Source: Candidatus Omnitrophota bacterium
Lineage (GTDB): Bacteria > Omnitrophota > Gorgyraeia > Zapsychrales > Zapsychraceae
Direction: 5' to 3'
Assembly: GCA_050250375.1 (NCBI GenBank)
Contig: JBFWOS010000002.1
Span: 453,149-517,148 of the forward strand
Length of the DNA: 64,000 bases
In this document: piece by piece, positions 42,470 through 42,700 of the stretch
How positions within the stretch are numbered: position 1 is the stretch's first letter
Layout: the number at the start of each line of letters is the position of its first letter
Notes under the pieces: model-generated
Seen by the model: the letters and a program-made list of their open reading frames with translations, nothing else
Database searches by the model: none
Told to the model about the DNA's origin: nothing
Translations under genes and position numbers: made by a program

Positions 42470-42562
42470 TCTAACCTTCTATGGATTTTTATGGTGGTGT
42501 ATTTTTTATAGTCTTGATTATACGACCAATCGCGGATAATTCCTAGTCTGATTTCACGGGTT

Positions 42563-42700
42563 TTAACGCGCCAGGGTGAGTTTGGGGGCGGCGGGGATTT
42601 TTTCGTTTGGTCCGGCATGGCCCAGGATAAACGGCATTAAAGGAACGGGTTTGAAGTCGATGATGACCTCAAGAGTCAGACCTCTTCGACTTTTCCCAAG
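42563..42700 (-). pseudogene. Orphan 3'-terminal fragment of a giant-protein gene. It encodes only the shared C-terminal module (...LEVIIDFKPVPLMPFILGHAGPNEKIPAAPKLTLAR).
   Basis: 42563-42662 is about 90% identical at the nucleotide level to the last ~100 nt (43041-43140) of the 2429-aa gene. The protein motif PVIIDIRPV -> EVIIDFKPV is retained further upstream, but there is no N-terminal body. Confidence 0.6.

Follow-up and report, generated by a model that had tools for sequence, protein, structure and literature searches.

Genes and features at the locus

The window, a stretch of 64,000 nucleotides of DNA from a Candidatus Omnitrophota bacterium, contains three genes (19485..33950, 4821 aa; 43041..50330, 2429 aa; 57214..60891, 1225 aa), all on the minus strand, which share an N-terminal and a C-terminal module. 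The features under study lie at and beyond the 3' end of the 2429-aa gene:

43041..50330, minus strand: 2429-aa gene, from the list of open reading frames, its translation and Pfam
43041..43146, minus strand: first repeat copy, the last 35 codons and the TAG stop, attached to the 2429-aa gene
43017..43040, minus strand: spacer of 24 nt from the gene stop to the start of homology with a toxin-antitoxin (TA) operon, present also in the relative L006
42973..43001, minus strand: promoter-like TTGTCT-17-TATTAT upstream of the antitoxin start, a consensus match only
42669..42941, minus strand: 90-aa ORF, residues 1-62 an intact Rv0078B-type antitoxin, followed in frame by about 27 residues from two toxin stumps
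42671..42756, minus strand: toxin-gene remnants, recognised by nucleotide comparison with L002, with the same pattern against L093
42563..42769, minus strand: 68-aa ORF, probably a chance reading frame, the first 33 codons being toxin-remnant DNA out of frame and the last 35 the orphan tail
42563..42668, minus strand: second repeat copy (the orphan), 35 codons and a TAA stop, beginning 3 nt past the TA-operon homology
about 39200-42562 (to 43040 with the insert), minus strand: low-GC stretch of about 3.4 kb adjoining the orphan on its distal side, with 32-39% GC where other parts have 51-58%

The N-terminal module of the family (about 350 aa) has a signal- or transmembrane-like start and contains WVNLSPYEK, GRDLLAQDYILKQ and FNKVWIVPD, while the C-terminal module follows the pattern GGIDLN..IKRD..G.PLP...PVI..I.PV..LP.LLG; neither has a match in Pfam or NCBIfam. 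Between the conserved modules lie variable domains, namely an AceK regulatory domain, an AceK kinase domain and two 2-hydroxyacid dehydrogenase units (Pfam) in the 2429-aa gene, whose C-terminal module is GGIDLNP...PVIIDIRPV..LPFILG, kinase-like and GNAT domains (Pfam) in the 1225-aa gene, and ARMT1-like and ELFV dehydrogenase domains in the 4821-aa gene. This architecture of two modules around unrelated cytoplasmic-type enzyme domains resembles a scaffold for delivery or sorting whose cargo varies. Term searches in two papers on giant genes of Omnitrophota (bioRxiv 10.64898/2026.06.07.730766 and 10.1101/2023.11.21.568195) brought up no reference to such terminal modules or, in one of the papers, to orphan fragments.

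The C-terminal module lies 0-50 aa from the stop codon of a long ORF in all three window genes and at 78 of the 80 family loci surveyed below, the exceptions being L088 (a short upstream ORF) and L049 (the module is internal). In L049, the module is found at positions 6001-6174 and the ORF runs more than 1985 aa further, in a locus with many internal direct repeats, which could reflect tandem family genes that have fused or are read through. Each of the window paralogs has its own tail after the C-terminal module. The post-module extension PFILGHAGPNE..PAAPKLTLAR is common to the 2429-aa gene and the orphan only, and is missing from the other two window paralogs.

The low-GC stretch beyond the orphan encodes a MORN-repeat protein (41522-42469), a TPR protein (40190-41086), a Sel1 protein (39465-40091) and a 75-aa ORF. 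It was probably acquired horizontally and may represent an earlier acquisition at the same site as the TA insert; no boundary repeat was found at its far end. Immediately upstream of the 2429-aa gene, and divergent from it, is a plus-strand gene (50502-51614) with DUF1016_N and SNase domains, resembling the YhcG-like nucleases. Elsewhere in the window, a 41-nt inverted repeat (13687-13727 and 15616-15656; 76% complementary, rich in GTCACA/TGTGAC) flanks the ORFs 13746-14948 and 14945-15616.

Direct repeat of the gene tail

Positions 42564-42668 are a direct repeat of positions 43042-43146, both on the minus strand, with 91 of 105 positions identical (87%), no gaps and a blastn E value of 1e-32. 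An earlier note on this DNA, made from the letters alone, had described a near-identical copy of the gene's 3' end including the stop; the repeat is real, but the stop codons differ, being TAA (42563-42565) in the orphan and TAG (43041-43043) in the gene. Identity within the 105 nt is mosaic: 13 identical nucleotides are followed by a 21-nt patch holding 10 of the 14 mismatches and by 72 nt holding the other 4, and this clustering in the patch has a permutation p of about 3e-4. Seven of the ten changed sense codons are non-synonymous, including a leucine-to-proline change in the conserved motif, thus at least one of the two tail copies has been drifting without constraint.

Four direct-repeat families occur in the 64-kb window, among which the gene tail and its orphan form the sole one that is not N-terminal homology between paralogs. 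Searches of the window by blastn (word size 7) and tblastn, with particular regard to where the low-GC stretch ends, gave no third copy of the tail. Neither copy has, on either strand, an attC-like or other fold beyond that of shuffled controls (z -1.0 to +0.4), and no inverted repeats flank the insert in the window.

The gene stop and the start of the orphan repeat are separated by 372 nt (42669-43040), and the distance of about 270 nt given earlier is that to the start of the 68-aa ORF. The motif EVIIDFKPVPLMPFILGHAG, which had been taken to persist upstream of the nucleotide identity, falls within the 105-nt repeat, and no homology with the family exists 5' of 42668, where the DNA is toxin-gene remnant in another frame. 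A protein similarity between orphan and gene stretching to 67 aa was rejected, as the DNA concerned aligns, in another frame, with the toxin gene of L002 and L093 at 76-84% identity. The 68-aa ORF is accidental in its composition, because its first 33 codons are that remnant, and should not be called a gene in annotation.

A decayed toxin-antitoxin operon between the two copies

The sequence between the copies, whose nature the earlier note missed, is a decayed TA operon. The antitoxin scores 27.9 bits against PF18993 (gathering cut-off 27.1) in a 110-aa reading, and its homologs carry precomputed matches to the same Pfam family, with 23 alignment columns invariant. Most of these homologs are 60-63 aa long and cover just 61-71% of the 90-aa ORF, the tail of which (QESFREEQMAFF..LLYSTWEKSKRS) matches toxin residues of L002; the 90-aa "antitoxin" is therefore to be annotated as a fusion with toxin debris. 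The promoter-like site overlaps a short palindrome (TGTCT..AGACA), and the site is shared by the TA operons of L002, L093 and L006, where it is conserved.

In the intact relatives (L002, L093, L097, L098 and L100), the antitoxin gene overlaps a toxin gene of about 183 aa at its 3' end. Such an intact partner is absent from the window, where only two stumps of it are found. Nucleotide homology to the intact operons of L002 and L093 is 77-81% from the promoter to the toxin stop and is interrupted by two clean internal deletions. The alignment with L002 consists of three collinear blocks: 43016 to 42757 corresponds to L002 9924-10185 (promoter and antitoxin, 81% identity), 42756 to 42713 (44 nt) to L002 10596-10640 (toxin), and 42711 to 42671 (41 nt) to L002 10782-10823 (toxin). 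These blocks imply that two deletions of 410 and 141 nt, together with a 1-nt gap, removed nearly all of the 183-aa toxin. Homology with the TA operon stops at 42671 and the orphan starts at 42668. The partner toxin has no Pfam or NCBIfam match, and tblastn returned distant matches only, on cyanobacterial and Herpetosiphon plasmids, which are annotated as hypothetical.

The junction between gene and operon recurs in L006, a 433-nt contig of a close relative from another assembly, which begins with CGT TAG followed by TTATTCATTTAAAATAAAAC; from the same CGT TAG, the junction sequence TTATTCATTT runs into an intact toxin start. The insertion is thus real and shared with a relative, and the toxin was lost later in the window genome. 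The earlier note is supported in so far as the fragment is a displaced terminal copy made by recombination or insertion; that it is no assembly duplicate is borne out by this junction and by the unique sequence lying between the copies.

Tail, cassette and orphan at other loci of the family

Family loci were collected by scanning with an alignment of the C-terminal module, one genome per species; a first alignment was too divergent, and the narrower one that was used gave 80 loci, most of them in records titled Omnitrophota and the remainder labelled uncultured Planctomycetales or bacterium. The last 50 aa of each gene were then searched by tblastn against its own locus. Orphan tails are present at three of these loci (L021, L067 and L087), with TA families unlike that of the window; the same arrangement does occur in other Omnitrophota genomes, a check that the earlier note had suggested for related genomes. 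All three lie downstream on the same strand, in a context of short ORFs, and end at a stop codon.

The orphan of L021 is 34 nt long (85% identity), that of L067 consists of 106 nt at 92% identity and a second block reaching the original stop, and L087 has one of 111 nt at 89% identity and a second, more diverged one. The TA families between gene and orphan differ from locus to locus and are unrelated to one another (Pfam). The insert is a MazE-like antitoxin with a partner on the opposite strand in L021, and a HEPN/MNT system in L067, where a pair of ORFs of 100 and 137 aa, presumably Phd-like/PIN as read from the translations, follows 3' of the orphan. Three TA cassettes stand in a row in L087, with an orphan after each of the first two, in the order NTP_transf_8 with a 104-aa partner, orphan, RelE/XRE, second orphan, RHH/ParE. 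Amino acid identity is 82.5% for the proximal orphan of this array and 52% for the distal one, which fits sequential accretion at a live gene end. In L021, the orphan is succeeded by ordinary flanking DNA, namely an AT-rich intergenic stretch and a convergent 319-aa ORF, which we take from its translation to be murB-like.

The inserts are single operons of 0.4-1.2 kb. At all four loci, the window included, the repeat ends at the original stop codon of the gene (within 4 nt in L067), while its 5' end lies anywhere from 34 to about 230 nt upstream; no convincing common core at the 5' ends and no shared junction motif was found across the four. Repeats that end at the stop and vary at their 5' ends are expected if the incoming element carries a tail that restores the gene.

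Every orphan found at the four loci sits behind a TA cassette. Orphans occur at 4 of at least 8 TA-adjacent family-gene ends against 0 of about 73 others (hypergeometric p about 4e-5, with an incomplete census of TA operons), the downstream neighbours of family genes being mostly ordinary housekeeping genes. At least four family genes (L043, L065, L071 and L072) have a TA operon directly downstream with no clear orphan, the search in L071 giving a marginal match only (E 0.01).

Several further details were observed at these loci. The gene-attached tail of L067 (1758-1881) carries an insertion of about 44 nt and substitutions that lead to an early stop (..SEFTQHP*), and the orphan retains the longer end, which is also seen in the paralog L071, so that the displaced copy is the better preserved. 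In L087, two copies of a 45-nt palindrome (TTACACTACA...TGTAGTGTAA; 6349-6393 and 7368-7412) bracket the first TA cassette, one lying in its promoter and the other at its 3' end. Either operator or terminator elements of this TA operon or the ends of the cassette could account for them; transposon ends were considered and rejected, as the palindromes have more the look of operators or terminators. L065 has direct repeats of 70 and 47 nt (90-91% identity; 6921-7038 and 8967-9255) about 2 kb apart, downstream of a family gene that precedes a weak PIN-domain ORF, and these are not copies of the gene tail.

The same toxin-antitoxin lineage in other contexts

The TA lineage of the window is also found in L002 and L007, where it borders islands that have duplicated comM 3' ends on their flanks, and in seven other contexts that have no flanking duplication, which shows that the duplication is not intrinsic to the movement of this TA operon. 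In the two groundwater metagenome contigs concerned, 3' fragments of a comM-like (Mg-chelatase-like) gene flank and separate the small islands (L002 6621-12385; L007 6402-10939), the repeat of L002 being 464 nt long at 91% identity and L007 containing three tail fragments. The defence-type cargo of the islands comprises a weak GapS1-like protein, an ORF6N protein, an ATPase (AAA_14/DUF4143) and an ERCC4 nuclease, together with the same Rv0078B-type TA operon, and their architecture is likewise tail, cassette and tail with a different target gene. The lineage is repeatedly found beside family genes: in L093, an intact copy immediately precedes the N-terminal module of a further family gene (5893-8021), and an ORF similar to DDE-type transposases is located near the TA operon (2734-3894).

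Origin of the orphan copy

We interpret the orphan as one arm of a direct repeat that arose when a TA operon was inserted at the 3' end of the gene, a reading that includes a site-specific route and to which we give a probability of about 0.55. That the duplication is tied to the insertion of the cassette, whatever the enzyme, can be stated with good confidence. Under the proposed mechanism, a small self-promoted TA operon (about 0.9 kb when intact) would have entered the extreme 3' end of the 2429-aa gene by recombination between the gene tail and a DNA molecule that carried its own copy of the tail, as in att-type integration. The gene would have stayed intact, while one tail copy was displaced beyond the insert and has presumably drifted since as non-coding DNA; the toxin was later lost by the two internal deletions, leaving the promoter and an antitoxin fused to toxin stumps. 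The recombinase may have acted in trans or may since have been lost, and the insert would then be comparable to a decayed att-flanked (CIME-like) element whose TA operon outlived the rest. Repeated events at the gene-proximal copy could build arrays such as that of L087.

No integrase or recombinase was found within about 10 kb of the locus (20-kb gene and Pfam table), and no integrase is among the 25 most frequent Pfam families of the 145 ORFs downstream of 67 family-gene ends. No empty site or excised form was found in public data: a protein search with the last 399 aa gave distant family members only, and a metagenome scan that used the last 80 aa turned up no relative of the tail. Further points against the att-type model are that the DNA following the orphan is low in GC and foreign-looking rather than obviously native, and that decayed islands are typically larger than these cassettes of 0.4-1.2 kb. 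If an ortholog were found to end in PVPLMPFILGHAGPNEKIPAAPKLTLAR with AACCCGTGAAATCAG directly after it, the orphan would be the native tail, and the TA operon and new tail would have arrived together. A bolder proposal, that the tails of family genes are dedicated capture sites for small TA or defence cassettes and that each capture copies the coding tail, is doubtful; if true, it would amount to integron-like arrays built by an undescribed recombination system that uses a protein-coding 3' end as its site.

General homologous recombination, with no site-specific enzyme involved, might have produced the same architecture, and we regard this as possible at rather low odds. It could have operated through a single RecA crossover between the gene tail and a circular molecule carrying a TA operon and a tail, or through homology-facilitated illegitimate recombination, where related-strain DNA that already had the TA operon past its stop codon was anchored in the gene and an illegitimate join was made 105 nt upstream of the recipient's own stop. 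Consistent with such a route are the lack of a recombinase near the locus or downstream of the family genes, the variable 5' boundaries of the repeats, the divergence between copies of 8-15%, which is at an allele-like level, and the mosaic mismatches, the near-identical block of 72 nt being suited to a crossover; the relative with the TA operon at the identical junction could also represent the donor state. However, the route requires a donor in which the TA operon already lay exactly at the stop, leaving the first insertion unexplained, the 34-nt repeat of L021 is short for RecA-dependent exchange, and the three TA families in the array of L087 would mean repeated rare events at one site. 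The RecA-dependent and the site-specific route yield the same picture and are inseparable here.

The earlier note had read the fragment as the tail of a further family member without a body, left by cassette exchange between paralogs, and as support for active shuffling at the locus. A body lost through unequal recombination or cassette exchange is improbable. There are, to be sure, three family members in the window and tandem family genes at many Omnitrophota loci, the orphan end of L067 is closer to the tail of the paralog L071 from the same MAG than to the mutated end of its neighbour, and the comparison covered the paralogs within the window only. Yet the orphan carries the post-module extension of the adjacent gene, which it matches with an E value of 3e-15 against 0.7 or more for the other two window paralogs, and it therefore derives from the lineage of the 2429-aa gene and from neither of these paralogs. 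The best-conserved DNA of the window paralogs reaches an identity of no more than 62-78%, a divergence too great for recent exchange, so no sign of such exchange among them is seen. In addition, the homology of the orphan ends exactly where the TA operon ends and not inside a gene body, and orphans in the family were found only behind TA cassettes.

A function of the 68-aa ORF or of the repeat itself, as a small protein carrying the C-terminal signal, or as a site with structure that serves recombination or regulation, is very improbable: the ORF starts with ATG and ends in the conserved tail, but nearly half of it is the out-of-frame toxin remnant, the codon changes noted above are mostly non-synonymous and include one in the conserved motif, it has no Pfam or NCBIfam match, and the repeat folds no better than its shuffled controls. 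An assembly duplication artefact is hardly credible, as 14 of 105 positions and the stop codons are different in the two copies, a unique and independently recognisable TA sequence lies between them, the junction of gene stop and cassette was recovered in another assembly (L006), the same layout occurs in three unrelated MAGs, and two contigs of more than 1 Mb are recorded as encoding exactly this antitoxin-fusion protein.

With insertion of a TA cassette as the preferred reading, the fragment is not evidence of part-swapping between giant modular genes, and it marks the 3' end of the gene as a place where selfish TA cassettes land. The recurrence outweighs the single copy, as the layout is seen at 4 of 81 family-gene ends in four different MAGs, always with a TA cassette. 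It is a concrete and countable signature of the entry of small cassettes into the streamlined genomes of uncultured Omnitrophota, and new complete genomes of the phylum can be screened for it.

Comparison with known systems

The present case is unlike a transposon or insertion sequence, as the insert is not bounded by inverted repeats and the length of the duplications varies from 34 to 230 nt. Chromosomal integron arrays, which often contain TA cassettes, are similar in their small, mostly single-operon cassettes, in the repeated element and, as in L087, in the position of the newest cassette by the insertion point. Unlike in integrons, the repeated element here is the tail of a protein-coding gene and differs between genomes, the repeat has no attC-like hairpin, the 20-kb gene table contains no IntI gene, and the orientation of cassettes varies (L021).

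The orphan cassettes of cdiA, rhs and other polymorphic toxin genes share with the window a displaced 3' fragment past a very long gene, in the same orientation and with a small gene adjoining. Those of cdiA and rhs consist of a different toxin domain with an immunity gene and share a conserved region upstream of the toxin, whereas the orphan described here comprises only the conserved extreme tail of 35 codons with no alternative domain, its upstream homology stopping at 42668, and in place of the small gene stands an unrelated TA operon, type II-like and under a promoter of its own, which lies between the gene and the orphan. The TA operon itself resembles the Rv0078B/Rv0078A pairs, as its antitoxin domain matches PF18993, and differs from them in that the toxin of the window is reduced to two stumps fused to the antitoxin and the putative toxin matches no model in Pfam or NCBIfam.

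The literature (PMC5704250) describes att-flanked elements that have decayed (CIMEs) and accrete in tandem where a target gene ends at its 3' side, for instance ICESt1-related elements and tRNA-gene islands. In contrast to CIMEs, each insert here amounts to one TA operon of 0.4-1.2 kb, a cognate integrase-bearing element at the target was not seen, a modular protein family specific to the phylum provides the target with its C-terminal tail, and no core sequence is common to the loci. As in CIMEs, direct repeats flank the insert in the window and in L021, L067 and L087, and one of them supplies the target gene with its functional 3' end, the insert is free of integration genes with a TA module among the surviving cargo, and successive inserts are stacked beside the gene end in L087. 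The kind of event is thus known biology and the novelty is modest, consisting of single-operon TA cassettes with no visible recombinase that recur at the gene tails of one Omnitrophota protein family.
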